A stretch of 32,000 bases of DNA. It comes from Candidatus Saccharimonadota bacterium. GTDB lineage: Bacteria; Patescibacteriota; Saccharimonadia; Saccharimonadales; Saccharimonadaceae. Shown here piece after piece: positions 4,068 to 29,771 of the stretch. The stretch is taken from assembly GCA_023898645.1 (NCBI GenBank), contig CP060232.1, positions 1,080,001-1,112,000 on the forward strand, written 5' to 3'. The notes under the pieces are model-generated. The model was given only the letters and a program-made list of their open reading frames with translations. It searched no databases and was not told the DNA's origin. How positions within the stretch are numbered: the first letter of the stretch is position 1; every line of letters starts with the position of its first letter. The translations under genes and the position numbers were made by a program.

Positions 4068-4182
4068 ATGGTTGTAGAAATCCTGCAGTTATTATATTTG
4101 TTTTAGAGCTTTTGTAGCTTGATACTAGCATAAACACTATAAAGCGTCAATCAGTGGTGTCAATCTGAAATTTTTGCCATAA

Positions 4183-4210
4183 AAATACTCCGCATAGAGG
4201 CGGAGTATTT
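4183..4210 (-). terminator. Rho-independent terminator downstream of the 117-aa gene
   Basis: An 11-bp stem, AAATACTCCGC / GCGGAGTATTT, followed on the minus strand by TTTTTAT. Confidence 0.7.
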
Positions 4211-4221
4211 TAGCTTGCACT

Positions 4222-4575
4222 TTATTGTGCCGGAGGAACTGGTCCAACTGGTGGCTTTGATTCTTCAACTGACGGCTCAGCTGTTGGAGTTACCGAGGTG
4301 TCGCCCTCACTAACTACAGGAGACGCCTCTACAGGAGATGACTCTACACTTGATGCTTGTTCTACTGACACACTTGGAGCACCAACTTCCGTGGAACCAT
4401 CACTAGGTACGTCCGCTTGAACATCATCTAGCTGCGGCTCTGGAGTTAATGATTCATGTGCTGGCGGCACGACGGGTCCTGCTGCCTCTTTTTTCTTGCC
4501 TCCTCCAAATAGTCGAGCAAAGAAGCCTTTTTTTGGCTCTTGGGGTGCAGGTGTGTTGTTTTCTACTGGTGGCAT
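4222..4575 (-). CDS. Small low-complexity (P/S/E/V-rich) hypothetical protein
   Basis: 117 aa, with an AAAGGAAAA SD about 5 nt upstream of the ATG and a terminator downstream. The composition is biased, so coding status is not certain. Confidence 0.5.
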   Translation of the reverse strand: MPPVENNTPAPQEPKKGFFARLFGGGKKKEAAGPVVPPAHESLTPEPQLDDVQADVPSDGSTEVGAPSVSVEQASSVESSPVEASPVVSEGDTSVTPTAEPSVEESKPPVGPVPPAQ

Positions 4576-4639
4576 AGTTTTCCTTTTTTTACTATTTCTT
4601 AAACATTAGCGGATTTATTGAAAACTGTCAAATCACAAC

Positions 4640-5773: not shown

Positions 5774-5804
5774 ACTGGAAATAATAGCATAAGTTATTTC
5801 CAGT
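5774..5804 (-). terminator. Hairpin between groEL stop and the ATPase start (possible terminator or attenuator)
   Basis: An 11-bp stem, ACTGGAAATAA / TTATTTCCAGT, with a 9-nt loop. There is no clear U-tract on the minus strand, and it overlaps the putative -10 of the ATPase gene. Confidence 0.4.
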
Positions 5805-5831
5805 AGACTAGAGTTTTTGGCTAATTATTGA

Positions 5832-7478
5832 CTAGAAGCCCATACCGCCTGGCATACCACCAGCAGGTGCCGCCGGAGCTGGCGGTTCAGGAATTTCTAC
5901 TACCAATGCACCCATGGTAACGGCCGTTGCTGCAATTGAAACCGCACTGAGCACAGCCTCTTTTGTGACACGGACCGGGTCTATAACACCAGCTTTTTTA
6001 ACATCAATCAGCTTCGTACTCGGGTTGTTTACATCAACACCCATTCCAGGCTTTGCCGCCTCTACCTGCGCCAGAAGTGCTTCACTGTTCAGTCCTGCGT
6101 TTGCTGTAATTAACGTAAATGGTATGCGCAGCGCCTGCTTCAAAATCTGCCGGCCGGCATTGATACTATCCGTACCATCAGCCACTATACTTGCAGCCAA
6201 ATTTACCAACGTTACGCCTCCACCGGCGACTATTCCTTCACTCAACGCAGCCTTTGTTGCAGCCACGGCATCGTCTACACGAAATTTCTTTTCGTCAATC
6301 TCGGTCTCAGTTGCTCCGCCGACTTTAATGACCGCAACCTTTCCGCTTAATGCAGCGGCTCGTTTTTCAAGCTGTTCTTTATCGTATTCGCTATTTGCAT
6401 TTTCAGCTTGTGCAATCATCTGAGTGATTCGTGCCTTTACAGCACTAAGCTTACCGCTGCCCTCAACAATTGTCGTACTGTCTTTACCGACGATAACTTT
6501 TCGAGCACTACCCACAACATCTAACTCTACGTTTTCAAACGTCAGTCCTTGGTCTTCCGATATGACAGTCGCTCCTGTCAAAACAGCAATATCTTGTAAT
6601 TTGTCTTTGCGGCGATCACCGAAATCAGGTGCTTTTACGGCCACGGTATTCAATACACCCTTGAGCTTATTCAGAATCAATACGCTCAGTGCCTCGCCTT
6701 CGACCTCATCGGCAATCAAGACAACGTCTTTTTTGCCAGCCTGAGCAAGCTTCTCAATTAGCGGAAGGATTTCCTGAACGCTACTAATTTTTTTGTCAGT
6801 GATTACAACTGCCGGTTTTTCATACACAGCCTCTTGACGACTCGCATCCGTTACAAAGAATGGCGAAGACCAGCCTCGATCGAGGCTAAATCCTTCAACC
6901 ACTTCGGCTTCAAGCTCAAGCCCTTGACCCGCCTCGACAGTTACAACAGCGTCTTTACCAACTTTTTCTATAACGCCAGCAATCTTATTTCCAATTTCAC
7001 TATCACCAGCGCTAATAGTTGCAACGTCTGCCACGCGTGCTGTCTTGCCTTCAATACTCTCGGCAAGTTTATCAAGCTGTTTTACGACTTCGTCGCCAGC
7101 CGCCTCTATGCCTTTTCGGAGCTCCATAGGATTATGACCTGCTGCAATCATTCGATTAGCCTGCTCCAAAATATTATATGTAAGAACAGTCACGGTAGTC
7201 GTACCGTCTCCGGCGTCTTTATTTAGCTTGCTCGCAGCCTGCTTAATCAATTCCGCACCTGTCTTATATCCCAACGTTTCATCGTCTTCCGGCAAATCAA
7301 TCGCCTCGGCAACCGTTACACCGTCGTGCGTTACCGTCGGACCACCATAGCCCTTGGCAATGACAACATTACGTCCTTTTGGACCATACGTTACCTTCAC
7401 TGCATCATATAGTGCCTTCGCCCCACCAAGCACTCGCGCTCGAGCATCATCATCATAAAATACTTTTTTTGCCATCAT
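5832..7478 (-). CDS. groL: Chaperonin GroEL (Cpn60)
   Basis: MAKKVFYDDDARARVLGGAKALYDAVKVTYGPKGRNVV, GDGTTTVTVL, EGIVAGGG, and a C-terminal GGMPGGMGF tail. The second ATG (7475) is better spaced from the GGAGG SD. Confidence 0.97.
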   Translation of the reverse strand: MMAKKVFYDDDARARVLGGAKALYDAVKVTYGPKGRNVVIAKGYGGPTVTHDGVTVAEAIDLPEDDETLGYKTGAELIKQAASKLNKDAGDGTTTVTVLTYNILEQANRMIAAGHNPMELRKGIEAAGDEVVKQLDKLAESIEGKTARVADVATISAGDSEIGNKIAGVIEKVGKDAVVTVEAGQGLELEAEVVEGFSLDRGWSSPFFVTDASRQEAVYEKPAVVITDKKISSVQEILPLIEKLAQAGKKDVVLIADEVEGEALSVLILNKLKGVLNTVAVKAPDFGDRRKDKLQDIAVLTGATVISEDQGLTFENVELDVVGSARKVIVGKDSTTIVEGSGKLSAVKARITQMIAQAENANSEYDKEQLEKRAAALSGKVAVIKVGGATETEIDEKKFRVDDAVAATKAALSEGIVAGGGVTLVNLAASIVADGTDSINAGRQILKQALRIPFTLITANAGLNSEALLAQVEAAKPGMGVDVNNPSTKLIDVKKAGVIDPVRVTKEAVLSAVSIAATAVTMGALVVEIPEPPAPAAPAGGMPGGMGF

Positions 7479-7484
7479 TTCCTC

Positions 7485-7748
7485 CTAAACTGTCGCTAGT
7501 ATGTCTTCTTCCTTAACAATCAAATAAACGGTGCCGTCTATTTTCAGCTCGGTTGTCGTGTATTCTTTATAAACAATACGATCGCCTTTTTTTATTTCTT
7601 TAACATCTGGCCCAATTGCCTCTACAGTCGCAACTACCGGCTTTTCCTTCGCCGCATCTGGTAAATAAATGCCGCTTGCAGTCTTGGTTTTCGCTTCCTC
7701 GCGGACAGCAACCACACGATCAGCAAGGGGCTTGATAGGTGAACTCAT
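7485..7748 (-). CDS. groS: Co-chaperonin GroES (Cpn10)
   Basis: MSSPIKPLADRVV...GDRIVYKEY. A GGAGG SD lies 8 nt upstream of the ATG at 7748. The longer ORF reaching 7775 would remove that SD, so I rejected it. Confidence 0.93.
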   Translation of the reverse strand: MSSPIKPLADRVVAVREEAKTKTASGIYLPDAAKEKPVVATVEAIGPDVKEIKKGDRIVYKEYTTTELKIDGTVYLIVKEEDILATV

Positions 7749-7796
7749 AAGTGTGATCCTCCGTTTGTTTAACATTATTAATTGTAAACAAAAAAA

Positions 7797-7823
7797 TTAG
7801 CACTTGCAAGGTGCGAGTGCTAA
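7797..7823. promoter_or_regulatory. CIRCE operator (HrcA-binding inverted repeat) upstream of groES-groEL
   Basis: TTAGCACTT-N9-GAGTGCTAA versus the consensus TTAGCACTC-N9-GAGTGCTAA. A TATAAA box sits immediately upstream on the minus strand. Confidence 0.9.
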
Positions 7824-7839
7824 TTTTTATAAAAATTCT

Positions 7840-8301
7840 TTATCTTGTTCGGTTTCGTATCTTTATATGAGAATCACCGTTGTAGTCACCGAAATCATCT
7901 TCCTCAAAAGTATCGAGAGTCGCCGCTCTGGCCAGACTGGCTCGAATTTCTTTATCCGTACGTCCGCCAACTTCCGCAATTGTCGGATAGGTATCATTGT
8001 TCAAATGCTCCGAAGCACTTTCTGCTTCTGGCTGTTCTGCTTCACGTAATATACGATCGGCCTCTTGTTCAAGTTCACTTGGACTCATTTGAGCATAATA
8101 ATCATCTAGGCCGTCACGAATTACTTCTTTTAAATAAGCTTTATCTTTATTAATTAGGCCACGCTGCTCCCATTGATTTTCCCAGTATCCCTGATCGATA
8201 TGCCCTTTGCGCTGTCCTGCATCACCGTGATCTTGCGTACGATTGTGGCGGTATTTAGATTTTGATTTGTTTGATTTTGGTTTTTCCATCATATTGGTCA
8301 T
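7840..8301 (-). CDS. Hypothetical charged protein
   Basis: 153 aa with no recognised motifs. A consensus promoter lies directly upstream (see 8309-8336). Confidence 0.55.
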   Translation of the reverse strand: MTNMMEKPKSNKSKSKYRHNRTQDHGDAGQRKGHIDQGYWENQWEQRGLINKDKAYLKEVIRDGLDDYYAQMSPSELEQEADRILREAEQPEAESASEHLNNDTYPTIAEVGGRTDKEIRASLARAATLDTFEEDDFGDYNGDSHIKIRNRTR

Positions 8302-8308
8302 GTTTTAA

Positions 8309-8336
8309 ATTATACATTTTTTTGACTAATTGTCAA
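8309..8336 (-). promoter_or_regulatory. Sigma-70-type promoter placing the TSS at the start codon (leaderless)
   Basis: On the minus strand: TTGACA-16 nt-TATAAT-7 nt-ATG(8301). Confidence 0.65.
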
Positions 8337-8418
8337 TAATGCTTATGTAATTGACTTTTTATCTTTCGCGTGCTAAGCTTAAGCAAGAATTAGTTGCACA
8401 TACAAACAAAAAATACCT

Positions 8419-9282
8419 ATGAAAAAAGACGCATCTTCACCTCACGAAAATCACATTTCGACTGACGAATCGGAGATGACGGCCGATCAACGTGAATTTC
8501 TTGAGCGTATGTACTCTATGTACTCCGCAACCGCCACTACAGGAGAAAAATTACGTGACCTCTACTCACGCGAAGGTGCCCAGTCGCTAGACCAAGCAGT
8601 TGAAGACTTGGCATACGAGCTCATGGCAGACAACGAGGAGTACAAAGAGCTCCTGCATCAACGAGAATTAAATCGAAACGCCCCAATCGGTCCCCGAGTA
8701 CGCGAACTAGAGGCAATGTACAAAAATTTTATCTATAGCATTAATGATCTTCCGAATGAAACAAGATATAAGCAAATTGAGGCTGCACGAAATAATGTCA
8801 AACACATACTAGCCGAAAGTATCAAAGAACCAATAGATGACCCCGAAAAAGCCATCGAGGTGCTTGGAATTAAACGAAAAGACAACGAAGGACATATCTC
8901 GTACCACTTCCCCGTCGAACTTGTTCCGGAATCAGTAAATGAAAAATGGGAAGTATATCTTGCGGCAGCTTGCGCCAATATAATCGCCGAAGACAATCTC
9001 AGGTCATCTGGAAACACTGATGAAATAGATGCAACAGATTCGGCACGAGTTTACGCTCATAACGCTGTAACCGACGACATACATGCGATATTAAACATCG
9101 ACGGTATAAAAGGCTGGGACAGGGCTCGAACGCGCCAGCTACTTGCAACTATACGCGACAATACCTTCGCTACGTTTGGCTCAAAGAACGCATCGTCTCA
9201 AGAAACTGAACTAGCCAATAAATTGCTTGCAAAATACAACGACAAACAACTTGCAATCGTAAAAGCTCTTAGTAGTCGCTAA
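8419..9282 (+). CDS. Hypothetical protein
   Basis: 287 aa with normal composition. No motif recognised. Confidence 0.6.
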   Translation: MKKDASSPHENHISTDESEMTADQREFLERMYSMYSATATTGEKLRDLYSREGAQSLDQAVEDLAYELMADNEEYKELLHQRELNRNAPIGPRVRELEAMYKNFIYSINDLPNETRYKQIEAARNNVKHILAESIKEPIDDPEKAIEVLGIKRKDNEGHISYHFPVELVPESVNEKWEVYLAAACANIIAEDNLRSSGNTDEIDATDSARVYAHNAVTDDIHAILNIDGIKGWDRARTRQLLATIRDNTFATFGSKNASSQETELANKLLAKYNDKQLAIVKALSSR

Positions 9283-20088: not shown

Positions 20089-20132
20089 GAGAGCTAACTT
20101 TAGCATTATTGCATCTTCAAAAGAAAAGACCC

Positions 20133-20169
20133 ATCGAAATGAGTCTCTTTTTTTGGTACACCCGATACG
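20133..20169 (-). repeat. Duplicated 3' end of tRNA-Arg (16 nt identical) plus a degenerate copy of its downstream hairpin
   Basis: TGGTACACCCGATACG at 20154-20169 is identical to 20333-20348. The preceding 25 nt match 19/25 with 20308-20332, including the hairpin. Confidence 0.8.
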
Positions 20170-20224
20170 GTATCGGCTAAAGCCTCCTCCGCTCGTTTGC
20201 TCAAGAAAATGCCACGCGCTTTCT

Positions 20225-20270
20225 TTCGCTTCACTCGCTACGCCGAACGTACTTTTGCTACGCAAAAGCT
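20225..20270 (-). pseudogene. Decayed tRNA-Arg-like fragment (anticodon arm to acceptor 3' strand)
   Basis: By-eye alignment to the intact tRNA-Arg. The 10-mer CGAACGTAC(G/T) is shared. GCTTCACTCGCTACG matches GTACACCCGATACG at 11/15. TTTTGCTACGCAAAAGC aligns with TTTGGCTCCGCAAGCCAA. No acceptor pairing remains. Confidence 0.4.
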
Positions 20271-20332
20271 ATGTTCAAATACGCAAGCAAATTAACCAAG
20301 TAAAAACGGCCATAGAAATGACCGTCTTTACT

Positions 20333-20409
20333 TGGTACACCCGATACGATTCGAACGTACGACCTTTGGCTCCGCAAGCCAACGCTCTATCCAGCTGAGC
20401 TACGGGTGC
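20333..20409 (-). tRNA. tRNA-Arg (anticodon GCG), CCA encoded
   Basis: GCACCCG-TA-GCTC-AGCTGGATA-GAGC-G-TTGGC-TTGCGGA-GCCAA-AGGTC-GTACG-TTCGAAT-CGTAT-CGGGTGT-ACCA. Confidence 0.9.
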
Positions 20410-20485: not shown

Positions 20486-21190
20486 TTACAGTCGGAGCAT
20501 GCGTACTATGCGATCTATCATGTCCAAGTGCAGCTCTTTCATAGGTAGGCGAGAACCAAGCATGTCTACAATTGCCTCACCAGATTCCTCGGGGAAATAA
20601 ACTGTTATACCTGGTTGAAAACGTTGGGTTGGAATCAACATAACCGAAAATTCCTCGCCGTCACGTATAATTCCAAATGATTTGAAGTTGTCAAAATTAT
20701 GCAGTGTACTGTCTATAGTTAGACCATCGTCGTCAATGGTATACGTCAGTTCATGCGGTGGGCGTCGTGAATAAACGACAATGACAAATGCAATAACGAC
20801 AATCAGTACAGTAAACGACCATGCTTGGGTCCACACTGAAATCCCGCCCAAAATCACGATTACAGCGGCGAATAATGAAAACCATCCCGCACCTTTTTCA
20901 TGATGAATATACTCCTGCGCAGTCCATGTAACGGGTTCGCTTGATGGCTCTTCTTCGTCATAATACTCATCATCATCTTCTGGGTCGGAATCTGGATTCG
21001 GCTGAGATTCGACAGTTGGTAGTGAGGGTGGAGCGCTTTGATTAACAGATGGCTCGTCTAGAGCAGCCTGCAAGGCAGCCGGGTCCACAATGGATGACTG
21101 CACGTTACCATCAACTTGCGGTAAAGATGTCGGTTGCCCAGGTTGATCCTGATCGGGTTGATAAAACCCCTGTTGATCGTTCGGTTGCAT
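20486..21190 (-). CDS. Membrane protein with a Q/P/D-rich N-terminus, two TM helices and a C-terminal soluble domain
   Basis: 234 aa. TM segments WFSLFAAVIVILGGISVW and FTVLIVVIAFVIVVY. TGCTATACT-6 nt-ATG lies upstream. Confidence 0.6.
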   Translation of the reverse strand: MQPNDQQGFYQPDQDQPGQPTSLPQVDGNVQSSIVDPAALQAALDEPSVNQSAPPSLPTVESQPNPDSDPEDDDEYYDEEEPSSEPVTWTAQEYIHHEKGAGWFSLFAAVIVILGGISVWTQAWSFTVLIVVIAFVIVVYSRRPPHELTYTIDDDGLTIDSTLHNFDNFKSFGIIRDGEEFSVMLIPTQRFQPGITVYFPEESGEAIVDMLGSRLPMKELHLDMIDRIVRMLRL

Positions 21191-21268
21191 GGTTACAGTA
21201 TAGCATGAGCAAGATAAATTTCACTGTCTCTGTGGCTATTGAGGCCTTCCGTAACTTTTGCCAAATGA

Positions 21269-21317
21269 AAAAGAGATGCAGCCGCATCTCTTTTTCATTT
21301 GGCGGAGGAGGGAAGAT
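21269..21317 (-). repeat. Distal direct repeat (attR-like): 3'-terminal 18 nt of tRNA-Ser(GCT) plus its 31-nt downstream hairpin
   Basis: Positions 21269-21312 are 44/44 identical to 23871-23914. After one mismatch, 4 more nt match. The repeat contains TGGCGGAGGAGGG, the complement of the tRNA 3' end. Confidence 0.85.
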
Positions 21318-21501
21318 GTCGGCTCAAGCCCCCATGTTCACTTGTTCAAAAAAGTAACCCCGTTACTTCCTTCGCTTCGTTCACTACATCAAATTCCTAC
21401 TTCACCCCACTTGTGGTATGTTCTGTGAGCTCCAACAACTCCCAAAGCCATTAACTATCTCTATACCAAATATTACATTCAATATACAGTACAATAATTG
21501 C

Positions 21502-21840
21502 ATGGAAGCAATAAAAAGTCTCAATATAGCCATCAGATTTTTGCTAGAAATCTGCCTGTTGATTTCTGCTGGGTACATCGGCTACAAATTAACTAATATA
21601 CCTTACGTAAAATATGGCTTAGCAATCTCTATTCCCATATTAGTAGCCTGCATTTGGGGAATATTCATTGCACCAAAAGCGAGTTATCTACTTAACGTGC
21701 CGTACAGGATCTTCGTCGAAATCGTTTTGTTTGGACTAACGTGCGTTCTTCTAGCACTATATGGAAAGATTGGACCTGCAATAGCCCTGGGGTTGGCTTT
21801 CAGCGTAAATGAAATGTTATTACTATACTGGAAACAATAA
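21502..21840 (+). CDS. Small 4-TM membrane protein, YrdB/DUF2568-like
   Basis: 112 aa from the ATG at 21502 (MEAIKSLNIAIRFLLEICLLISAGYIGYKL...). The stop abuts the ATG of the next gene (TAAATG). Confidence 0.55.
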   Translation: MEAIKSLNIAIRFLLEICLLISAGYIGYKLTNIPYVKYGLAISIPILVACIWGIFIAPKASYLLNVPYRIFVEIVLFGLTCVLLALYGKIGPAIALGLAFSVNEMLLLYWKQ

Positions 21841-22290
21841 ATGGAATTGCCTGAAAACGCTCCTGTACGGCGCAGACAAAGCATCGAGGTGTATGCCTCG
21901 GTGCATCTTGTGTGGTCCCTAATGTCAGAAATTGAACAGTGGCCCAAGTGGAATACCGACATAAAATCGGCGCGTCTACTAGGTAATCTGCGACCTGGAA
22001 CAACGTTCAAATGGAAGGCAGGTCCTGGAACTATCACATCTACAATTGAAGCGGTAGAACCGGAAAAGATGATTGGTTGGTCTGGAAAACTTCCGGGTAT
22101 TTTAGCCGTGCATATTTGGCGAATTGAAGGTAACAACAAGAAAGTTGTTGTTACGACCGAGGAATCATGGAGCGGAATCGTCCCAAAGTTATTCAGAAAA
22201 TACAGCGAACAGACGCTTGAAAAAGCGATTAACGACGGGTTATTGCTACTGAAACACGCTGCAGAGAATCAATATCATAGTCATTCATAA
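21841..22290 (+). CDS. SRPBCC-superfamily (polyketide cyclase/dehydrase-like) ligand-binding protein
   Basis: 149 aa. SIEVYASVHLVWSLMSEIEQWPKWNTDIKSARLL...TFKWKAGPG...IEAVEPEKMIGWSG is typical of Polyketide_cyc2-type SRPBCC proteins. Confidence 0.75.
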   Translation: MELPENAPVRRRQSIEVYASVHLVWSLMSEIEQWPKWNTDIKSARLLGNLRPGTTFKWKAGPGTITSTIEAVEPEKMIGWSGKLPGILAVHIWRIEGNNKKVVVTTEESWSGIVPKLFRKYSEQTLEKAINDGLLLLKHAAENQYHSHS

Positions 22291-22345
22291 ATATTCGAAG
22301 CTAGAAGTGTGACCGCTCCTCATTACGTACACCCGTTGTCCTGTT

Positions 22346-22954
22346 TTATCGAATAAATCTCAGCGCAGGAATTATTAAAAGCCAGCTAAATTTTGCTATA
22401 TCAGCATTAAATAGAGCAATCACTATCGAGATCAAAAATATAGCACCCATCGCTAAAGAACTGAATAGGCCGTTACGTATAGTCTGCTCTGCAATATTCG
22501 CACTAAGAAACTTCTTTTTTACGGCATATTGCCAACTCACAAAAGAAATCAATTCAATAACAACGAACGTTGACGCATACAATATCGTGGCCACTTTAGT
22601 GTCTGATTCACTCAATAGAGCTGTTGGGAACGGAATAAATGCGACAAAAAGCAATAAGACAAGATTCGACATCATAAAAACTCGGTCATATTGCACAAGA
22701 GCACGGTATTTTCTTACGTGTACCGACCAGATTGCACCAATGACAAGAAAGCTCAATACATAGGAAAAGAAACTGGGGATTATCGCTATAAGACCGCTCA
22801 GCACTGATGATTCAGAACTAAGGTCAACGTTTTCGGGTAAATGAATTTCAAGCGCAAGCAAGGTGATTGCGATTGCAAATACGGCATCACTGAAGAATAC
22901 GAATCTATCCACCCCTATTCTTGTCTGTTCCTCTGCAGATAACGACATCGACAT
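22346..22954 (-). CDS. TMEM175/DUF1211-family putative potassium channel
   Basis: Signature RFVFFSDAVFAIAITLLALEI (R-x3-FSD-x3-A-x3-TLL) near the N-terminus, and six predicted TM helices. Confidence 0.78.
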   Translation of the reverse strand: MSMSLSAEEQTRIGVDRFVFFSDAVFAIAITLLALEIHLPENVDLSSESSVLSGLIAIIPSFFSYVLSFLVIGAIWSVHVRKYRALVQYDRVFMMSNLVLLLFVAFIPFPTALLSESDTKVATILYASTFVVIELISFVSWQYAVKKKFLSANIAEQTIRNGLFSSLAMGAIFLISIVIALFNADIAKFSWLLIIPALRFIR

Positions 22955-23772
22955 TAAGCAGCACTCCGGTACGTCAATTCTCGGTCTTTCATAACGGATT
23001 TATTAAATGCGCTCGTTCGTATAACGCTCAGAGCGACAACGACTTGAATCAAAACGAATAACCAAAATAGCGTTTTGTCACCGGACATAACGCCCGTATA
23101 TGCAATCGATACGTCTGTAACAGCGTGAAATATAGCAACTAATAGAACGCTGCCTCGAGAATTATTAAACACCCACGACGTAAGTATAGATGTCGCAATA
23201 GCGGAAATAAGAAAGCCCACAAATGGTAGATTTGCCTGAAACGAGTCCGCAATCATAAACAATGGTATGTGCCAAAGGCCCCAGAGCAGCCCTAAAATCA
23301 AACTTGCGTTTAATGGAGTAAACTTTTTTTGCAACCGTGGTAACGCAAAACCACGCCAAGCCGTTTCTTCTGTAATAAGAAACAACCACCATTCAATTAA
23401 GAAAACAAGAAGGAGGCTCGAAGTGGTAATATCTGTGGCAAAATGTTTATTTTCACCGCCAAACAGATAATATATGAGCAAAGCGACAATAGAAATTATC
23501 GGAACCACCACCAAAGAAATGACATACCAAACTGGTTTTACTCTGAATCGCACAAGTCGTTTCAATAAATCAATGACAGCCACCTTTCCTCCACTTAATG
23601 CCGCGACGCCATATGTCGCTATTGTTAAGCCGAACCAAAAGGCAAGTGACTGTGGAATGTGCCATGTCAATAACTTGTTTTGTTGCGCTACACTCGTGCC
23701 CCACACAAGCCATGGAAGCAAATAAGCCATCCCGAAAAAAATAATAAGTGGGTGTTTTTTTATTATGTTCAT
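22954..23772 (-). CDS. CPBP-family intramembrane glutamic endopeptidase (CAAX protease / Abi-like)
   Basis: Motifs EETAWRGF (EExxxR), LWGLWH and FHAVTD. The protein is polytopic. Its stop overlaps the start of the next gene (TAATG). Confidence 0.85.
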   Translation of the reverse strand: MNIIKKHPLIIFFGMAYLLPWLVWGTSVAQQNKLLTWHIPQSLAFWFGLTIATYGVAALSGGKVAVIDLLKRLVRFRVKPVWYVISLVVVPIISIVALLIYYLFGGENKHFATDITTSSLLLVFLIEWWLFLITEETAWRGFALPRLQKKFTPLNASLILGLLWGLWHIPLFMIADSFQANLPFVGFLISAIATSILTSWVFNNSRGSVLLVAIFHAVTDVSIAYTGVMSGDKTLFWLFVLIQVVVALSVIRTSAFNKSVMKDRELTYRSAA

Positions 23773-23870
23773 TCTTGATTTCCCTTATGTTACAACATTA
23801 GTATACACAAGTTTAAAATATGGGCTCAAGGCGGCTTGCTGGAGTTTAATCTGTCCGATTCGCCAAACAG

Positions 23871-23919
23871 AAAAGAGATGCAGCCGCATCTCTTTTTCAT
23901 TTGGCGGAGGAGGGGAGAT
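23871..23919 (-). repeat. Proximal direct repeat (attL-like) overlapping the 3' end of the intact tRNA-Ser(GCT)
   Basis: See 21269-21317. Confidence 0.85.
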
Positions 23920-23994
23920 TCGAACTCCCGCTACAGGTCTCCCCGTACTAACGATTTAGCAAACCGTCCCCTTCAGCCACTTGGGTACTCCTCC
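23902..23994 (-). tRNA. tRNA-Ser (anticodon GCT), class II, CCA encoded
   Basis: Acceptor GGAGGAG/CTCCTCC, anticodon stem ACGGT/ATCGT with loop TTGCTAA, long variable arm, T-arm GGGAG-TTCGAAT-CTCCC, then GCCA. Confidence 0.9.
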
Positions 23995-24092
23995 GTATTT
24001 GGCTTGAAATATTGCTCTCGCAATTCCTTGGGACTCGATAGATTATAGCATAGTGTAAGGGGTCGGACTAGCCCTTGTGTGTTCTACGTCTA

Positions 24093-24121
24093 TTGACTTT
24101 ATGCTTATTTATTGGTATAGT
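24093..24121 (+). promoter_or_regulatory. Sigma-70 promoter placing the TSS at the start codon of pilin paralog P1 (leaderless)
   Basis: TTGACT-17 nt-TATAGT-6 nt-ATG(24128). Confidence 0.65.
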
Positions 24122-24127
24122 ATTAAT

Positions 24128-24550
24128 ATGAAGACAAAGGTTTTCTTGGGAGTACCAATCATTGCTACTATTTTGGTGGCTAGCTTAGTATTTACCCAAG
24201 ATACTCATGCAGTTAGCCTCAGTATATCTGCCGGCGCCAGTGCTGCAAAGGGTACGGATCAAGCAGCTAATTTATTCGGTCAGACAGGTATGTTTCGTAC
24301 TATAACCAACGTACTGCTATATCTCATTGGTGCCATAAGCGTCATTATGCTTATCATAGGTGGACTACGATACGTTGTGTCTGGTGGAGACAGTACTGCC
24401 GTACAAAATGCGAAAAATACGATTCTTTACGCCATTGTCGGTATCGTCGTTGCAATTTTGGCATATGCTATCGTCAGTTTTGTTATTTCATCGTTCACAG
24501 GAGTAGGTGGCGGAGCTGGTGGTGGTGGAGTTGCGCCGACTAATACGTAA
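24128..24550 (+). CDS. TrbC/VirB2-like T4SS pilin-family protein, paralog P1
   Basis: Signal peptide MKTKVFLGVPIIATILVASLVFTQDTHA, then the two-helix core NVLLYLIGAISVIMLIIGGLRYVVSGGDSTAVQNAKNTILYAIVGIVVAILAYAIVSFV and a Gly-rich tail. It resembles the Pfam T4SS_pilin family as I remember it. Confidence 0.8.
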   Translation: MKTKVFLGVPIIATILVASLVFTQDTHAVSLSISAGASAAKGTDQAANLFGQTGMFRTITNVLLYLIGAISVIMLIIGGLRYVVSGGDSTAVQNAKNTILYAIVGIVVAILAYAIVSFVISSFTGVGGGAGGGGVAPTNT

Positions 24551-24700
24551 TTATTTAAGTAATGTATGTAAACTTTTCCAGCATTTCGCTACACTGCGCC
24601 GAAAACTCATAGTTGCATCGGCTAAAGCCGCTGCCCGCAAGCTCTAATCAAGCCCGAACAGACAAGAAAATAGACCAGGCATTTGCCTGGTCTATTTTCT

Positions 24701-24788
<88 letters not shown>

Positions 24789-24830
24789 TTGTTAAAATGT
24801 GCTTCAGCAATAATAGCAGATTTACCCCTG

Positions 24831-25499
24831 TTAGTCGAGAGTTTGACGACTAATTGAGGCAACCCAAACCTTACCAGCACCAGCATCAAGTAAAGTCTGG
24901 GCTGCGTATTTCACGGTCGCCCCAGTTGTAATGACATCATCTATAAGTAGATATGTTGCATTTGGATCTAACTTTTTACGGCAGACAAATGCAGACTTTG
25001 CTTGTGACACACGCTCCCGCACTCCCATGCCGCGCTGTGTTGTATTTGTAGCACGACTCAGCGACAAATCGACAGACAGCTTTCGTAAGCCACTAAACTT
25101 TCGCGCTACTAATAGCATGTGGTCGTAACCCCTTTGGCGAATATGAGAACCAACTGTAGGTACGGGAACAATAATTGTATTTTTCGGTAATTCAGGCAAA
25201 TGGGAATGAAGTAGGTCAGCGAGCGGGCCATGTGCTGCTCGCGTGTTACTAAACTTGAAGTCATTTATCAGACTTTCAAGATGATCACGACGGTCGGCGA
25301 CACACCAGGCGCGCTCATATGGCACACGACATACTCCACATAAACCACTTGCTGGCGCCAGTTGCTTGCCACAGCCCACACACGCAGAGAAAGGTTCGCT
25401 TATGATGTCATATTTACAATTATCACATAGCATGGTGCCAATTATTCCGCATCCGGAACAGTGGTGGGGAGCGATAATTGATAGTAGTTGGTCAATCAT
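24831..25499 (-). CDS. comF: ComF-family competence protein (phosphoribosyltransferase domain with N-terminal Cys-rich zinc-ribbon-like region)
   Basis: CSGC...CDNC and CVGC...CGVC pairs, plus the PRTase motif YLLIDDVITTGATV. Confidence 0.85.
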   Translation of the reverse strand: MIDQLLSIIAPHHCSGCGIIGTMLCDNCKYDIISEPFSACVGCGKQLAPASGLCGVCRVPYERAWCVADRRDHLESLINDFKFSNTRAAHGPLADLLHSHLPELPKNTIIVPVPTVGSHIRQRGYDHMLLVARKFSGLRKLSVDLSLSRATNTTQRGMGVRERVSQAKSAFVCRKKLDPNATYLLIDDVITTGATVKYAAQTLLDAGAGKVWVASISRQTLD

Positions 25500-25604
25500 T
25501 GTGATTTTTACGTTTTGACGGCTTGTCCGGTTGATTATATCACCGCTACTGGTTATACTGTAGGGGACAAGTTGTCAAGAGCCTAGAGAAAGTGGAGGAT
25601 ATTT

Positions 25605-26072
25605 ATGGCCCGCAAACAAAATACCAATGACGATCTATTGATCGAAGACGAATTGGCCGCCGCATTCCTGAATGACGACGATCTTTCAAGTAACGCCGAT
25701 GATGGCGGTGTCGTCATGCATGATGACGAACAGCTTGAAGACGATTTTCCAGGACAGTTGGCAGTCGATGTATACGAAACCGAGGATAAGCTGGTTGTTA
25801 AAGCCCGCACAGCCGGTGTAAACAAAGATGAGCTAGACGTCAGTATATCTGACGGCATCCTAACAGTCAGCGGTACGCTGAGCAGTGGTGATGACGCCGA
25901 TGTTAATAACTGGCACATTCAAGAATGCTACTGGGGCGAGTTTAGTCGTACACTAGCACTTCCTGTTGCCGTTAAGGAAGATGAAGTAGAGGCCGTCTTA
26001 AAGGATGGTGTTCTAACCATTACATTTAGCAAGGTTAAGCAAGAACACGCTAAGAAAATTCAGGTTCTGTAA
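25605..26072 (+). CDS. Hsp20/alpha-crystallin-family small heat-shock protein
   Basis: The alpha-crystallin domain runs from LAVDVYETEDKLVVKARTAGVNKDELDVSISDGILTVSG to FSRTLALPVAVKEDEVEAVLKDGVLTITFSK. A GGAGG SD lies 8 nt upstream. Confidence 0.9.
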   Translation: MARKQNTNDDLLIEDELAAAFLNDDDLSSNADDGGVVMHDDEQLEDDFPGQLAVDVYETEDKLVVKARTAGVNKDELDVSISDGILTVSGTLSSGDDADVNNWHIQECYWGEFSRTLALPVAVKEDEVEAVLKDGVLTITFSKVKQEHAKKIQVL

Positions 26073-26087
26073 AACTACAGTCCAATC

Positions 26088-26119
26088 AAAAAACTCCGCG
26101 ATAATCCGCGGAGTTTTTT
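26088..26119. terminator. Bidirectional rho-independent terminator between hsp20 and the pilin operon
   Basis: A 13-bp stem, AAAAAACTCCGCG / CGCGGAGTTTTTT, with a 6-nt loop. Confidence 0.8.
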
Positions 26120-26133
26120 GATTAGCAGCTTAA

Positions 26134-26553
26134 TTACTGGCCGCTAGTGAAACTTGAGACAACAAAGTTGACTACAGCGTAGGCGAGAATAGCAACGACC
26201 ACACCGACAATAGCATAAAGAATCGTATTTTTCGCATTCTGCACAGCCGTACTGTCGCCGCCAGATACAACGTAACGAATACCGCCGATAATAAGCATGA
26301 TCACACTAATTGCGCCAATGAGGAACAATAGCACGTTGGTAATGGTACGGAATATACCACCCTGGCCACCTGTACCAAAGAGAGTAGACGCGTCACCCTG
26401 CTGGTCCTTGCCCTGTGCAGCTCCTGCGCCGTCACTTAGTCCTTGGTTGAATGATGCGTGCACGGGAACAGGTTGCGCGAACAGACCAAAGCCCAATACC
26501 AATGCCGGTACGACAAGCGCCGCCGACAGAAGTTGTTTGATTTTACTTTTCAT
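26134..26553 (-). CDS. TrbC/VirB2-like pilin-family protein, paralog P2 (closest paralog of P1)
   Basis: Signal peptide MKSKIKQLLSAALVVPALVLGFGLFAQPVPVHA. The core NVLLFLIGAISVIMLIIGGIRYVVSGGDSTAVQNAKNTILYAIVGVVVAILAYAVVNFV is present. The ORF is open to 26568, but the second ATG has the better AAAGG SD. Confidence 0.8.
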   Translation of the reverse strand: MKSKIKQLLSAALVVPALVLGFGLFAQPVPVHASFNQGLSDGAGAAQGKDQQGDASTLFGTGGQGGIFRTITNVLLFLIGAISVIMLIIGGIRYVVSGGDSTAVQNAKNTILYAIVGVVVAILAYAVVNFVVSSFTSGQ

Positions 26554-26625
26554 GTATGAACCTTTCATTTTGATTACTTTACTACTTTTATACCAGATGA
26601 CGGGAGTTTTGTTAAGTGCTAACCA

Positions 26626-27006
26626 TTAACTTTTAAACGCACCGAGAACGAAGTTGACGATGGCGTACGCTAAGATAGCGACAACTAAACCAATAACCGC
26701 ATACAGCACAACGTCCTTTGCTGATTTCACTGCTTGCGCGTCACCGTTACTCGTCGCGTAACGAATACCACCGATGATAATCATTATGACCGCAACAGCA
26801 CCCAAGAGAAACAGGAGTACGTTCACGACTGTTTTAATTTTATCTTGAAGATCTTGCGTACCTGTCTGAGTACCGCCAACAGACGTAACTCCGCCTTGTA
26901 TGCTATCAATTGGGCTTTGGGCTAAAACAGTTGAAGGCAACAGTGGTGCTGTAGCCAATCCAACTGTTGTCATAATGCCGAGAAGTAGTGTACGTAGTTT
27001 ATTCAT
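26626..27006 (-). CDS. TrbC/VirB2-like pilin-family protein, paralog P3
   Basis: Signal peptide plus core NVLLFLLGAVAVIMIIIGGIRYATSNGDAQAVKSAKDVVLYAVIGLVVAILAYAIVNFV. A TAGGAG SD is present. Confidence 0.8.
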   Translation of the reverse strand: MNKLRTLLLGIMTTVGLATAPLLPSTVLAQSPIDSIQGGVTSVGGTQTGTQDLQDKIKTVVNVLLFLLGAVAVIMIIIGGIRYATSNGDAQAVKSAKDVVLYAVIGLVVAILAYAIVNFVLGAFKS

Positions 27007-27019
27007 ATGGTTTCTCCTA

Positions 27020-27436
27020 TTAGTTTCCTTTCAGTCGTGCCAGTACGAAGTTGACAATTGCATACGCCATGATTGCAACGACGAGGCCTATAACAGCATA
27101 CAACACGGTGTCTTTGGCAGATTTAATCTGTTGTGAATCACCATTACTTGTGGTGTATCTGATACCCCCTATGATAATCATGATCACAGCAACTATACCT
27201 AGCACGAATAAAATCATGTTGATAATGTTTGTCATAATAGAGGTGAAGCTGTCGCCAGTTGCGCCACAAATCTGACTCTGGCCAGCGCTAGAGGAGGCTC
27301 CGCCACCGGTAGTAGCACCACCAGCACCGCCACCAGGGCAATTCTGAAACACATTAATAGCCATAGCTGGCACTGGCATAAAACTAGTAAAAATAAGACT
27401 GAGACTAATGAGTAATGGTGATAGATATTTTTTCAT
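27020..27436 (-). CDS. TrbC/VirB2-like pilin-family protein, paralog P4 (Gly-rich loop bounded by 2 Cys)
   Basis: Signal peptide, NCPGGGAGGATTGGGASSSAGQSQIC, then core NMILFVLGIVAVIMIIIGGIRYTTSNGDSQQIKSAKDTVLYAVIGLVVAIMAYAIVNFV. The SD is AAGGAGGA. Confidence 0.82.
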   Translation of the reverse strand: MKKYLSPLLISLSLIFTSFMPVPAMAINVFQNCPGGGAGGATTGGGASSSAGQSQICGATGDSFTSIMTNIINMILFVLGIVAVIMIIIGGIRYTTSNGDSQQIKSAKDTVLYAVIGLVVAIMAYAIVNFVLARLKGN

Positions 27437-27446
27437 ACGTCCTCCT

Positions 27447-27743
27447 TTATTTTGCGACTTGCTGCAATATGAATTGTGTTATACCGGCCGCCATGATGAC
27501 CACAATTAAACCAACGACAGCATAGGTGATAGTGTTCTTTGCTGCCTGGATCTGACTACTGTCACCGTTGGCACCTACATAGCGAACACCTCCGATGATA
27601 ATAGCAAGTACCGCAACAATGCCTGCAATGAAATAAACGACGCCCAGTAAGTTACCAACCGTAGTACCTGTAATACTAGTAGGGGCACCCTGAAGGTTCA
27701 AATCTTCTTTTGAAATCTTAATTGTGTTGTTTGAAGTTGCCAT
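27447..27743 (-). CDS. TrbC/VirB2-like pilin-family protein, paralog P5 (no N-terminal signal peptide)
   Basis: 98 aa with a hydrophilic N-terminus (MATSNNTIKISKEDLNLQGAP). The core is GVVYFIAGIVAVLAIIIGGVRYVGANGDSSQIQAAKNTITYAVVGLIVVIMAAGITQF. Its start overlaps the P6 stop (TAATG). Confidence 0.75.
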   Translation of the reverse strand: MATSNNTIKISKEDLNLQGAPTSITGTTVGNLLGVVYFIAGIVAVLAIIIGGVRYVGANGDSSQIQAAKNTITYAVVGLIVVIMAAGITQFILQQVAK

Positions 27744-28210
27744 TATTTGATACTCCCAGCAATAAATTGAACAATGGCAATCGCCATAATTGAAATAACC
27801 AGACCAATGATAGCATTTTGGATGGTTTTGCGAGCAGCAACAGTGCCGCTACTGTTGTCACCCTGTGTCATATATTTAAACCCTCCCCATATAATGAATA
27901 TGAGTGATGCGTAACCAACGACGTAAAGTAACATATCTACAATGTTCATGGCGATAATCGTCAGCCATGTGCCAAACCTTTTACCAGTGTCGCCACTACC
28001 AACCTCATTGGGTGATTTTATACTTCCGTCACTTTTACATAGTCCATCGTACCAATGGGGGAAAATAGTGATACTTCCGCCACACGGATTAGAGCCGCCC
28101 GCAGAACTTGCGACGGTAGGCGCCGCATTAACGTATGACACCGGTAGTAGAGTAAATGCCGCAAGACTTATGAAAGTAATAGCAATTTTATATCTTATAT
28201 TTCGTAACAT
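27743..28210 (-). CDS. TrbC/VirB2-like pilin-family protein, divergent paralog P6 (2 Cys)
   Basis: Signal peptide, PCGGSITIFPHWYDGLC, then core DMLLYVVGYASLIFIIWGGFKYMTQGDNSSGTVAARKTIQNAIIGLVISIMAIAIVQF. Confidence 0.7.
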   Translation of the reverse strand: MLRNIRYKIAITFISLAAFTLLPVSYVNAAPTVASSAGGSNPCGGSITIFPHWYDGLCKSDGSIKSPNEVGSGDTGKRFGTWLTIIAMNIVDMLLYVVGYASLIFIIWGGFKYMTQGDNSSGTVAARKTIQNAIIGLVISIMAIAIVQFIAGSIK

Positions 28211-28217
28211 GTCGCAT

Positions 28218-28586
28218 CTATCCTATCACGCCACCAGGTACCAGCCAATTGATAATTGCAATGGTAAAACCATAAAGTAACAGACCAATGACAATATTTC
28301 GAATGATTGTTTTTGACTGATCTAGCTGGGATTGATTGTCGCGAGCAGACGCATAGAGAATTGCAGCATACGCCAAACCGCCAGTCGCCACCACTCCGAT
28401 GAGTATAGTTAGTACGTTTGTCGCTATTTTTATCAAAGCACCAATTGTACCTATACCAGTTTTATCGCTACAGGAAATCAATTGAGTTTTAGTAGTACCA
28501 CATGAACCTGCAGCGTATACAGGTGCAGCACTAACACCAAGCAGGACGGCAAAAAGCGCAATGGTGATTTTTATTTTTTTCATCAT
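28218..28586 (-). CDS. Pilin-like two-helix protein, subfamily B, paralog P7 (2 Cys)
   Basis: Signal peptide MMKKIKITIALFAVLLGVSAAPVYA, SCGTTKTQLISC, then NVLTILIGVVATGGLAYAAILYASARDNQSQLDQSKTIIRNIVIGLLLYGFTIAIINWLVPGGVIG. Confidence 0.7.
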   Translation of the reverse strand: MMKKIKITIALFAVLLGVSAAPVYAAGSCGTTKTQLISCSDKTGIGTIGALIKIATNVLTILIGVVATGGLAYAAILYASARDNQSQLDQSKTIIRNIVIGLLLYGFTIAIINWLVPGGVIG

Positions 28587-28595
28587 ATCTTGGCG

Positions 28596-29771
28596 CTATT
28601 TTATCACGCCTCCGGGTACTAGCCAATTGATGATAGCAATCATAAATCCATACACAAATAAACCTATCACGATATCGCGAATCCGCTTCCGTGCGTTTGA
28701 TACGGCTCCTTGGTCGTCTTGAGCCTGTGCGTACTGAATTGACTCCCACACTATACCGCCGACAGCCCCTATACCAACCAGTATCGAAAGTGCCTGCACG
28801 ACATACTGAAGCACCGTACTAAGTACCTCTCCGCCCCTAGCATTTGTGTCGCAGTTTATAAGATTAGTCTTTGCTTGGCCACATCCGCCTTTAACCGTAG
28901 AGGTTGTCGTACCTGGACCGCCAGCATCATTAACACTTGAACCGTCTGGGCAATTACCGTTTGCATCCGCCGTGCTGCCATCCTTACACTTAGGAGGCGT
29001 GGGTGGCGGCGGCAATGTACACTTATTATTTACCCATGTACCTCCGGCAGCAGAGCATTCATTTGGCGACTTCGCCTTCGTTGCCATACATTGCTGCAGT
29101 GTATCGTTGGTAATTTTTGTTCCCGTACCACCATTCTGGTCATAACACTCATTAATCGAGTTATCGATGTTTGTCTCGCACTGCTTTATCTGATTAACAT
29201 CACTAAGATTAGCGTTGTTACAGGCGCTCGCCACATAGCTATCTATGCGATCCTGTTTAGTCTTCGAGTTCGTATTGTAGTCTTGGCCCCCGACCGCTGC
29301 GTTACGCTGGTCAATGGCGTTGTCTATGCCACACCCAGACCCCAAGGTAACTAGCCACAAATCCGTTGGCCCTGAACCATCCGCACCAACATTACCGTTA
29401 TTACACGTTGTTGCAAACGCTAAAACATCTTTGTCATTACACGCGGTAGTGTCTATTTCATTGGTATAACAAGATACAAGTGCGTTCGAACAGTTACCCT
29501 CTTCAGTACCTGGTACATAAGAAATGGAGCTAAGGCCACCTATCTGTGCCGTGTTTGCACACTGCCTAACCGCAGCAAGACAGTCACTAGCCTTTATGTA
29601 TTGCGATACCGACTTGCAGTTACCGCTTACACATGTACCATCATCCTTTGAGCCAGAGCAAGACGCCTGCGCTGCGTCCTCATACACAAATGAAAAAGAA
29701 AATGATGCGGCGATTATACTGACAATTACGAGTAGTTTTTTCATGAACAATGTTATTCTCTTAATATTCAT
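28596..29771 (-). CDS. Cys-rich extracellular domain fused to a subfamily-B pilin-like C-terminal module (P8)
   Basis: 391 aa with a signal peptide. By my count ~20 Cys lie in the first ~310 aa. A PPPPTPP linker follows. The C-terminal ~95 aa (GCGQAKTNLINC...LSILVGIGAVGGIVWESIQYAQAQDDQGAVSNARKRIRDIVIGLFVYGFMIAIINWLVPGGVIK) are collinear with the whole mature part of P7. Confidence 0.75.
   Translation of the reverse strand: MNIKRITLFMKKLLVIVSIIAASFSFSFVYEDAAQASCSGSKDDGTCVSGNCKSVSQYIKASDCLAAVRQCANTAQIGGLSSISYVPGTEEGNCSNALVSCYTNEIDTTACNDKDVLAFATTCNNGNVGADGSGPTDLWLVTLGSGCGIDNAIDQRNAAVGGQDYNTNSKTKQDRIDSYVASACNNANLSDVNQIKQCETNIDNSINECYDQNGGTGTKITNDTLQQCMATKAKSPNECSAAGGTWVNNKCTLPPPPTPPKCKDGSTADANGNCPDGSSVNDAGGPGTTTSTVKGGCGQAKTNLINCDTNARGGEVLSTVLQYVVQALSILVGIGAVGGIVWESIQYAQAQDDQGAVSNARKRIRDIVIGLFVYGFMIAIINWLVPGGVIK

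Follow-up and report, generated by a model that had tools for sequence, protein, structure and literature searches.

A small recombinase-less cassette behind a tRNA-Ser(GCT) gene of Saccharibacteria, probably of the integrative kind, and its cargo-less relatives in a four-tRNA cluster

A T-loop sublocation of insertion within tRNA genes was reportedly described by Williams in 2002. Genomic islands of tRNA and transfer-messenger RNA (tmRNA) genes were defined in Islander (PMC4383910); the part of that definition used here comprises an intact tRNA at one end, regenerated by the island, a displaced 3' fragment of the tRNA as direct repeat, an integrase inside the island and an uninterrupted site in relatives. 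Cis-mobilisable elements (CIMEs) are decayed integrative and conjugative or integrative and mobilisable elements (ICEs and IMEs) which keep attL and attR and are devoid of integration and transfer genes (PMC5704250). The ssrA islands of Dehalococcoides display a 20-bp repeat starting midway along the T-loop, with a conserved motif upstream of each repeat; they occur in tandem, some without integration module, and most carry a CcrB-like large serine recombinase beside attL (PMC3146451). Here we describe a 2,602-bp unit situated behind the tRNA-Ser(GCT) gene of a Candidatus Saccharimonadota genome (assembly GCA_023898645.1), within a 32,000-nucleotide stretch of contig CP060232.1 (positions 1,080,001 to 1,112,000; hereafter the window, whose numbering is used throughout), and compare it with related loci and contigs (labelled with numbers between L001 and L159), of which ~50 loci entered the recombinase search. 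With moderate confidence, this unit is considered a non-autonomous, CIME-like integrative cassette that inserted in the tRNA gene and was mobilised in trans.

Two 44-mers, at 21269-21312 and 23871-23914, were 100% identical, and the window contained no further match even when up to three mismatches were allowed; none of 100 dinucleotide-preserving shuffles gave a match by chance. Ungapped extension brought the repeat to 61 nt at 92% identity (21257-21317 and 23859-23919, both minus strand). The proximal, attL-like copy unites the 3' end of tRNA-Ser(GCT) with a terminator hairpin. This tRNA, the apparent insertion target, is intact (23902-23994, minus strand; found by ARAGORN and matched by the Rfam tRNA model at 53.9 bits) and is 98.9% identical to that of relative L112. 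The tRNA portion of the proximal copy corresponds to its last 18 nt (23902-23919), the last 13 of which are contained exactly in the 44-mer; over the five further nt, which reach into the T-loop, the tRNA has ATCTC and the distant copy ATCTT, hence a single mismatch, after which similarity stops. Read in the direction of the tRNA, the repeat runs from the last two T-loop bases through the 3' strand of the T-stem, the 3' strand of the acceptor and CCA to the end of the terminator hairpin. The distal, attR-like copy is composed of a displaced tRNA 3' fragment, hereafter called the ghost (ATCTTCCCTCCTCCGCCA, 21300-21317, identical to the tRNA 3' end at 17 of 18 nt), and of the terminator that originally belonged to the host, whose 20-bp stem is perfect (21260-21279 / 21284-21303). 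The attL junction consists of the tRNA followed by ...CTGTTTGGCGAATCGG, attR of ...GAGCCGAC followed by ATCTTCCC and attB of the tRNA followed by ...TCATTTGGCAAAAG, while the predicted attP would read ...GAGCCGACATCTTCCCTCCTCCGCCAAACAGAAAAGAG...CTGTTTGGCGAATCGG. A previous reading made from the letters of the window (the sequence-only reading) had announced perfect 44-bp direct repeats with the 3' end of tRNA-Ser(GCT), a similarity reaching the T-loop with one mismatch before breaking, and a unit inserted at the tRNA gene; the first two were recovered here, and the regenerated tRNA end and the displaced fragment supplied the bounds of the third.

The far side of the unit is occupied by a conserved gene for a 234-aa protein. 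An exact-sequence look-up of this protein retrieved five contigs from five samples (L101-L105), all encoding an identical protein, the nearest non-identical homologue being 69% identical. Contig L101 (2,247 bp) matched window positions 25294-23859 and 21321-20446 at 99.7% identity, and the two match blocks overlapped by 64 bp, which is one repeat copy. In L103 and L104 the tRNA body passes straight to the distal flank, and L102 and L105 start with tRNA-type T-loop sequence (TCGAATCTCC). The sequence left of the distal repeat copy is the one that follows the tRNA in these five contigs, so that the empty site predicted by the sequence-only reading does exist in near-identical strains. Exact look-ups of the cargo proteins located the island in four samples (SRR14234114, SRR12358675, SRR12358676 and SRR14234111), where it was 100% identical except for three bases. 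From SRR12358676 came an empty-site contig (L105) as well as an island contig (L110). Given the empty site in near-identical strains and the island in four samples, the segment is a present/absent polymorphism (insertion/deletion) within one near-clonal population in which island-bearing and island-free cells coexist, and not an assembly artefact.

Two independent assemblies of the same island (L106 and L107) displayed a distinct tRNA-proximal hairpin, with left arm AACAGAAAAG where the window displays AATGAAAAAG. This element-type hairpin (CCAAACAGAAAAGAGATGC-GGCT-GCATCTCTTTTCTGTTTGG) has a perfect 21-bp stem (-37.5 kcal/mol), and the host hairpin of all empty sites and of the distal copy (CCAAATGAAAAAGAGATGC-GGCT-GCATCTCTTTTTCATTTGG) a perfect 20-bp stem (-32.8 kcal/mol). 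The proximal hairpin of the window (arms 23861-23881 / 23886-23906) combines a host left arm with an element right arm, contains an internal mismatch and reaches -27.9 kcal/mol. In a strain of the L106/L109 type, exact identity between the two copies is reduced to a 15-bp block (CCCTCCTCCGCCAAA) and the 25-bp hairpin centre, the 44-bp perfect repeat being specific to the window's assembly. Since six compensatory differences separate the element-type hairpin from that of the host while island and flanks stay 99.7-100% identical, the proximal terminator arrived with the element. As the proximal hairpin of L106/L107 differs, the 44-bp perfection of the window would be secondary, resulting either from crossover or gene conversion between related hairpins or from a consensus artefact in a sample containing both alleles. 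The identity of 31 nt past the tRNA end corresponds to two related terminator hairpins and does not belong to a footprint of integration, as which the whole identity block had been taken. A site-specific exchange, if such it was, would be confined to the 15-bp block by the ATCTT/ATCTC mismatch and the AACAG/AATGA difference.

Within the limits of the part of the Islander definition considered, the unit resembles such islands by its intact regenerated tRNA (followed in L106/L107 by an element-type terminator unlike that of the host), by its displaced 3' direct repeat, which is the ghost, by a T-loop start of identity and by an empty site in relatives (L101-L105, and L001, where merely 113 bp separate tRNA-Ser(GCT) from the conserved gene). 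It differs from them by its size of only 2.6 kb, its native codon usage, an identity that goes on for 31 nt after the tRNA and takes in a terminator homologous to that of the host, and the lack of an integrase inside the island, since its four genes have other Pfam assignments and no recombinase similarity was found in the window. Like CIMEs, the unit keeps flanking attL and attR sequences (repeat copies and conserved element arms), is devoid of integration and transfer genes, and has a counterpart in L149 with cassette-like accretion, where three repeat copies bound two cassettes. On the other hand, neither a parental ICE or IME nor an autonomous element, adjacent or in tandem, was seen in the ~50 loci, and cargo-less versions, which here measure 160-200 nt and have structured arms better conserved than the genes around them, do not figure in descriptions of CIMEs. 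The Dehalococcoides ssrA islands seem to be the closest documented system by analogy. They share with the present elements a repeat from midway in the T-loop to the 3' end, a conserved motif (here ...GGCTTNAGCC-GAT, together with the core), tandem islands, integrase-less members and a strain-variable region downstream of one RNA gene, but they measure 10-30 kb, and neither the window nor any island with conserved arms contained a CcrB-like recombinase.

Cargo-less units of 160-200 nt between a tRNA and its ghost (hereafter mini-elements) were encountered behind tRNA-Arg in the window, L112/L156 and L007, behind tRNA-Ser(TGA) in L001, L007, L131 and L132, with a variant in L114/L159, and behind tRNA-Ser(GCT) in L006 and L002. 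The tRNA is followed by its own terminator, an imperfect inverted copy of the local T-arm (rcT), a short hairpin and T5, a direct copy of the 5' strand of the local T-stem plus TTCGG; then come a core of ~85 nt with a long hairpin, a small hairpin, GAT, the ghost and a second terminator. The island appears to be built on the same plan. Its right arm (21318-21400, minus strand; GTAGTGAACGAAGCGAAGGAAG - hairpin - TTTTTTGAACAAGTGAAC .. GGCTTGAGCC GAC) is a degenerate copy of the core, terminates exactly at the ghost and was matched at 21335-21392 (minus strand) by an nhmmer profile from three mini-elements (E 5e-6, and 1.5e-5 in a second run). Its left arm (23838-23864, plus strand), an imperfect inverted copy of the tRNA T-arm (GCTGGAGTTTAATCT...), was delineated by eye through comparison with L006, L112 and L002, and is a weaker call than the right arm, the nhmmer profile having stopped short of it. 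The profile match at the right end and the rcT-like block at the left suggest a mini-element-type unit whose two arms enclose cargo. In L112 other cargo (a prepilin-type protein) comes after the left arm, and there is no right arm.

A complete cargo-less unit lies behind the tRNA-Arg(GCG) gene of the window. The whole (20124-20409, minus strand) displays a 46-nt repeat at 80% and matches the mini-element profile at E 1e-38. It comprises the tRNA (20333-20409), a mini-element of 161 nt without gene (20172-20332), a ghost tRNA-Arg 3' end (20154-20171), which lies 179 bp behind tRNA-Arg(GCG), and the second terminator (20124-20153), all on the minus strand. Between the window and L112 this mini-element is 79% identical; the coding DNA beside it reaches 69-70%, and the sequence that follows the ghost is unalignable. 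Behind tRNA-Ser(TGA) (24701-24788, minus strand) a terminator and an inverted T-arm copy extend to 24635; together with the 3' third of the tRNA they form a 47-nt palindrome at 79% (24635-24681 / 24684-24730), which looks like a remnant left arm without core or ghost.

Junctions were compared in eight tRNA/ghost pairs, which belong to Ser(GCT), Ser(TGA) and Arg(GCG). Identity with the local tRNA begins 17-21 nt before its 3' end, mostly at 18 nt, in the T-loop (three bases earlier in L114, and blurred by indels in the Arg pair of L007), and in mini-elements it ends at CCA. This narrow range of ghost starts argues for a site-specific process. A ninth pair, at tRNA-Asn of L149, has only the last 10 nt of the tRNA and 11 nt downstream in common. 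The second ghost position is C instead of T (ACC for ATC) in L006 Ser(GCT), window Arg(GCG) and L131 Ser(TGA). This recurrent variant looks element-borne, which would favour a conservative Campbell-type exchange over target-site duplication.

The four cargo genes form two pairs. On the minus strand, a CPBP/Rce1-like intramembrane protease (272 aa, 22954-23772, PF02517 at 2e-13) is followed by a TMEM175-family channel-like protein (202 aa, 22346-22954, PF06736 at 1.5e-23), with an overlap of 1 nt at 22954; on the plus strand, the stop of a small DUF2568 membrane protein (112 aa, 21502-21840, PF10823 at 1e-22; its start agrees with the call on Logan contig L109) abuts the start of an SRPBCC/Polyketide_cyc2 protein (149 aa, 21841-22290, PF10604 at 5e-13). 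Pfam matched all four families named by the sequence-only reading, whose two tightly coupled pairs are equally evident from these junctions. A promoter-like site (TTGAGC-18-TATACT, 23800-23829, minus strand) lies upstream of the CPBP gene, inside the left arm, as a match of 9/12 in a consensus scan, and is a consensus match only. The link to bacteriocin immunity that had been evoked found no support for this cargo: a defence or immunity function was dropped, as PADLOC gave no match and the only NCBIfam match, to CPBP, was sub-threshold. The cargo presumably provides some accessory membrane function.

The segment has the lowest GC (41.1%) among same-size windows across the 32 kb, and its tetranucleotide distance is modestly high (0.26 against a median of 0.20). 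GC at third codon positions (GC3) of the four genes was 0.401, against 0.409 (standard deviation 0.033) in 24 other genes. Composition, which in islands of the Islander type is expected to differ from the host genome, had been proposed as a check on the insertion; the low GC was indeed observed, but it does not count as evidence of foreign origin, because GC3 matches the background and three of four cargo genes encode membrane proteins. It would stem from this membrane-protein content, the codon usage being native. In the stretch that separates the two gene pairs, 22310-22335 weakly resembles a tRNA-Arg 3' end and the start of a mini-element terminator (CGGGTGTAC..GTAATGA..CGGTCA); a relic of a tRNA-Arg end at this place was dropped, as the shuffle p of ~0.01 applies to one chosen region and is not robust.

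Saccharibacterial homologues of the CPBP protein were 56-71% identical, those from Chloroflexi and Actinobacteria 53-56%. Other Saccharibacteria also have CPBP-TMEM175 as a conserved module of two genes (the same pair in L144-L155), which lies directly behind tRNA-Asn(GTT) in L149-L151. In L149 it is bracketed by perfect 21-bp repeats, composed of the last 10 nt of tRNA-Asn and the 11 nt downstream. The region 3593-5941 of this contig carries tRNA-Asn(GTT), CPBP-TMEM175 and a 213-aa gene, bounded by copies of CCCGGAGCCATGCAATTATTT, two perfect and the third degenerate (76%); no recombinase was present within 6 kb of these tandem cassettes. L149 thus appears to show the CPBP-TMEM175 cargo recurring independently between brackets of the same type, here in tandem.

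The segment contains, as the sequence-only reading had it, neither an integrase nor an excisionase or replication gene, and none was found in the rest of the 32-kb window. The recombinase screen covered 1,585 open reading frames from the ~50 loci, by regular expression and by phmmer with XerD or the L002 serine recombinase as query; the tyrosine-recombinase part was crude, consisting of the regular expression and an approximate E. coli XerD query. The sole recombinases so detected were large serine recombinases of L002, a metagenome-assembled genome (MAG). Directly behind tRNA-Ser(TGA) there is one on the reverse strand, whose reading frame crosses this tRNA antisense; a second, partial copy is located past an AT-rich insert behind tRNA-Arg (inserts 2144-8900 and 10726-17251 of L002). 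This first enzyme resembles those of Actinobacteria (84% identity to a protein from Mycobacterium riyadhense) and its insert is GC-rich (55-63%) and without ghost repeat, so that L002 may contain an Actinobacteria-type element in a Saccharibacteria MAG. A homologue search gave no match on the window's 1,134,346-bp contig, and this Actinobacteria-like enzyme, in an unrelated GC-rich insert, was not retained as the cognate recombinase. It shows that serine-integrase elements use this tRNA cluster, with no link to the island family. The tyrosine integrase assumed by the sequence-only reading should not be taken for granted, as the closest precedent uses a large serine recombinase and nothing here shows the enzyme class.

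A free or viral form of the element was also sought and rejected. Motif scans of viral contigs gave 93 and 7 matches, none of which was upheld by an nhmmer profile; neither the CPBP protein nor the predicted attP/ghost junction was found in viral contigs, and blastn of the island against phage and plasmid records returned nothing relevant.

In the proposed mechanism, a circular form would carry an attP in which the right arm (...GGCTTGAGCCGAC) is joined to a tRNA 3'-end mimic together with the element's own terminator (ATCTTCCCTCCTCCGCCA-AACAGAAAAGAGATGCGGCTGCATCTCTTTTCTGTT...). A recombinase encoded elsewhere would perform site-specific strand exchange with the tRNA gene, at or just 3' of the T-loop, a point which the L106/L109 strain would narrow to CCCTCCTCCGCCAAA. 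The present arrangement is that one repeat copy completes the tRNA and is followed by the element-type terminator, while the original 3' end and host terminator lie 2.6 kb away, beside the 234-aa gene; the element carries two operons, CPBP-TMEM175, with a promoter-like site ahead, and DUF2568-SRPBCC. Present-day gain and loss could possibly also proceed via homologous recombination, since Saccharibacteria are naturally competent and flanks are identical. The earlier wording of a degraded island or a cargo cassette mobilised in trans fits a segment without recombinase. On the whole the sequence-only reading was partly supported: right in substance, as regards an inserted integrase-less cassette at a tRNA gene, it over-read the 44-bp identity.

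Several points weigh against an integrative cassette. A recombinase for the island family was not found in the window and the ~50 loci by the crude tyrosine screens, nor a circular form or attP junction in viral, phage or plasmid collections. The arms of the island are degenerate relative to the mini-element consensus and perhaps no longer a substrate, and the native codon usage of the cargo gives no sign of recent foreign origin. Finally, a simple Campbell model does not explain why cores are not grouped by tRNA type while tRNA-derived blocks match locally. The core of L112-Arg is 81% identical to those of both window-Arg and L001-Ser(TGA), and the two cores of L007 (Arg and Ser(TGA)) share 57% identity, yet T5, rcT and ghost always fit the local T-stem (ATAGG, GTACG, GCGAG, GTGGG, GAGGG or GGGAG).

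The best surviving alternative, to which we would give a minor but real chance, is an old insertion that no longer depends on any site-specific recombinase, with presence or absence among strains due to homologous recombination alone: loss by RecA crossover between the 61-nt repeats, gain by natural transformation via the tRNA/pilin and 234-aa flanks. Saccharibacteria are naturally competent (PMC10633639), and the window contains a ComF-type gene (24831-25499). Between samples the flanks are 99.7% and the island 100% identical, the proximal hairpin of the window is a host/element mosaic as expected of a crossover or conversion tract (although a consensus artefact could produce it), the island arms are degenerate and no recombinase was found in the window and ~50 loci. 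This explanation leaves aside the origin of the ghost and of the element arms, ghost starts within a few nt of one T-loop position at three tRNAs, and the same cargo between tRNA-Asn repeats elsewhere; moreover, the L106-type blocks of 15 and 25 bp are short for RecA-dependent deletion.

It is rather improbable that the flanking blocks are a functional structured nucleic acid of tRNA genes (a processing, termination or attenuation module), inside which the cargo landed, with tRNA-like repeats kept by selection or hairpin-templated correction and segments pairing alternately with the T-arm. The potential for pairing is nevertheless considerable. The tRNA 3' third, terminator and rcT form a long palindrome, rcT pairs with T5, T5 can pair with the T-stem of the ghost, and G-U pairs give the rcT:T5 helix strand specificity. 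Over eight mini-elements, 88% of cells of the predicted helices pair, against 40-55% with partners slid, and 20 of 35 predicted pairs changed on both sides, the structure being scored on the alignment from which it was derived. Pairing and conservation suggest either that a folded nucleic acid is under constraint or that hairpin-templated copying takes place, with the local tRNA as its source. The better conservation of the Arg mini-element than of neighbouring coding DNA and the fit of T5, rcT and ghost to the local T-stem in every species point in the same direction. Against such a module, a strong terminator precedes it, it is patchy among relatives and lacking in the compact cluster of L134, and the empty site of this very species does without the whole of it with no sign of harm. 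A known RNA family for the core was rejected, an Rfam search at E up to 1 having returned tRNAs and noise only.

Casposons insert at tRNA 3' ends, with 14-15-bp duplications. A casposase-like process, with staggered cuts ~18 nt apart (in the T-loop and just past CCA) followed by gap filling, would make the repeats target-site duplications; it would account for related cores at different tRNAs, each with a perfectly local ghost and the tRNA left intact, and for mini-element identity stopping exactly at CCA. We regard it as quite unlikely. The element ends are not mutual inverted repeats, as would be expected of casposons or miniature inverted-repeat transposable elements, and no Cas1 or transposase gene was found. 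The ACC-for-ATC change in three elements and ATCTT-for-ATCTC in the island have the look of element sequence and not of separate mutations, and the internal T5 and rcT copies are left unexplained. Lastly, a misjoining of the segment at a repeated tRNA end during assembly or binning is hardly credible: tRNA conservation among co-occurring Saccharibacteria is high, short-read contigs break at the tRNA and the chimeric hairpin could be a consensus artefact, but the junctions were reproduced in independent assemblies (L106/L107 proximal, L109 distal) with a 100% identical interior, and the source contig measures 1.13 Mb.

The cassette lies in a conserved locus. All relatives display the order tRNA-Ser(TGA), tRNA-Ser(GCT), 234-aa gene, tRNA-Arg(GCG) and tRNA-Ser(CGA), bordered by genes for type IV secretion system (T4SS)-pilins, HSP20 and comF on one side and HIT, SPOUT and valS on the other. 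The 234-aa gene (20486-21190, minus strand, promoter-like site at 21197-21224, minus strand) lacks a Pfam match, occupies the far side of the slot in all relatives, and has related proteins in Saccharibacteria genomes and metagenomes only. In the distant relative L134 the cluster is compact, with 28 bp and 0 bp between adjacent tRNAs, and devoid of mini-elements; elsewhere each tRNA is followed by a space of tens of bases up to 7 kb. L001 has an empty slot behind tRNA-Ser(GCT); in L005, L007, L112/L156 and L159 this slot contains other cargo, the 5.3-kb fill of L005 including a TMEM175 gene.

Window positions 24077-29771 hold at least seven paralogous T4SS-pilin-like genes and a gene combining a ComF-type phosphoribosyltransferase with a zinc ribbon (24831-25499), which fit the natural competence reported for Saccharibacteria. 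In L114, L124 and L129, tRNA-Arg and tRNA-Ser(CGA) have opposite orientations, and in L002 (9584-9796) and L113 (1-160) the mini-element core faces the opposite way to the rcT-hairpin-T5 block, two arrangements suggestive of inversions inside the cluster. L112 contains, at 2739-2758 (about 9059-9078 in L156), a perfect 17-18-nt copy of the tRNA-Ser(GCT) 3' end (TCTCCCCTCCTCCGCCAA) within the conserved gene, of 227 aa there, 58 nt past its start, where it encodes VSPPPPN in place of TSLPQVD of the window protein. Located 1.67 kb downstream of tRNA-Ser(GCT), this copy was not retained as an island boundary, as it stands inside the coding sequence of a conserved gene. Elsewhere in the window, BLAST matches 30 nt apart at 2424-2561 correspond to a short tandem repeat of period 30 in a 639-aa open reading frame without Pfam match (2148-4067).

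Taken alone, the island adds modestly to a known kind; novelty resides in the structured cargo-less mini-elements and the multi-slot cluster. Like integron cassettes, the cargo is small, recombinase-free, tandem, presumably moved in trans, and bounded by site-like sequences whose structure is more conserved than their sequence. Unlike them, the cassettes have promoter-like sites of their own and several genes in both orientations, and neither intI, attI at an array head nor an attC consensus is present; the crude screens found no tyrosine recombinase, and the boundaries are tRNA 3' ends. More speculatively, and with odds we would put low, Saccharibacteria could possess an undescribed class of miniature recombinase-less elements tied to the T-loop, more conserved than neighbouring genes, re-matching the local tRNA and capturing or exchanging small cassettes, that is, a tRNA-anchored, integron-like capture system. 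If so, mini-elements would be landing pads in the four-tRNA cluster, operating through an enzyme or through hairpin-templated copying.

Saccharibacteria have genomes of about 1 Mb with few recognisable mobile elements, so that their gain of accessory genes is poorly understood. In this respect, one conserved four-tRNA cluster constitutes a set of exchangeable cargo slots, where a slot can be empty or filled in cells of a single population, and one and the same membrane-protein module turns up behind tRNAs of more than one kind. Even if mini-elements are not active sites, the locus offers a clean, population-resolved case of an integrase-less tRNA islet. If they are active sites of recombination in trans, they would provide a defined natural insertion site and a testable mechanism of gene flux in a phylum of the uncultivated majority, now genetically tractable through natural competence.

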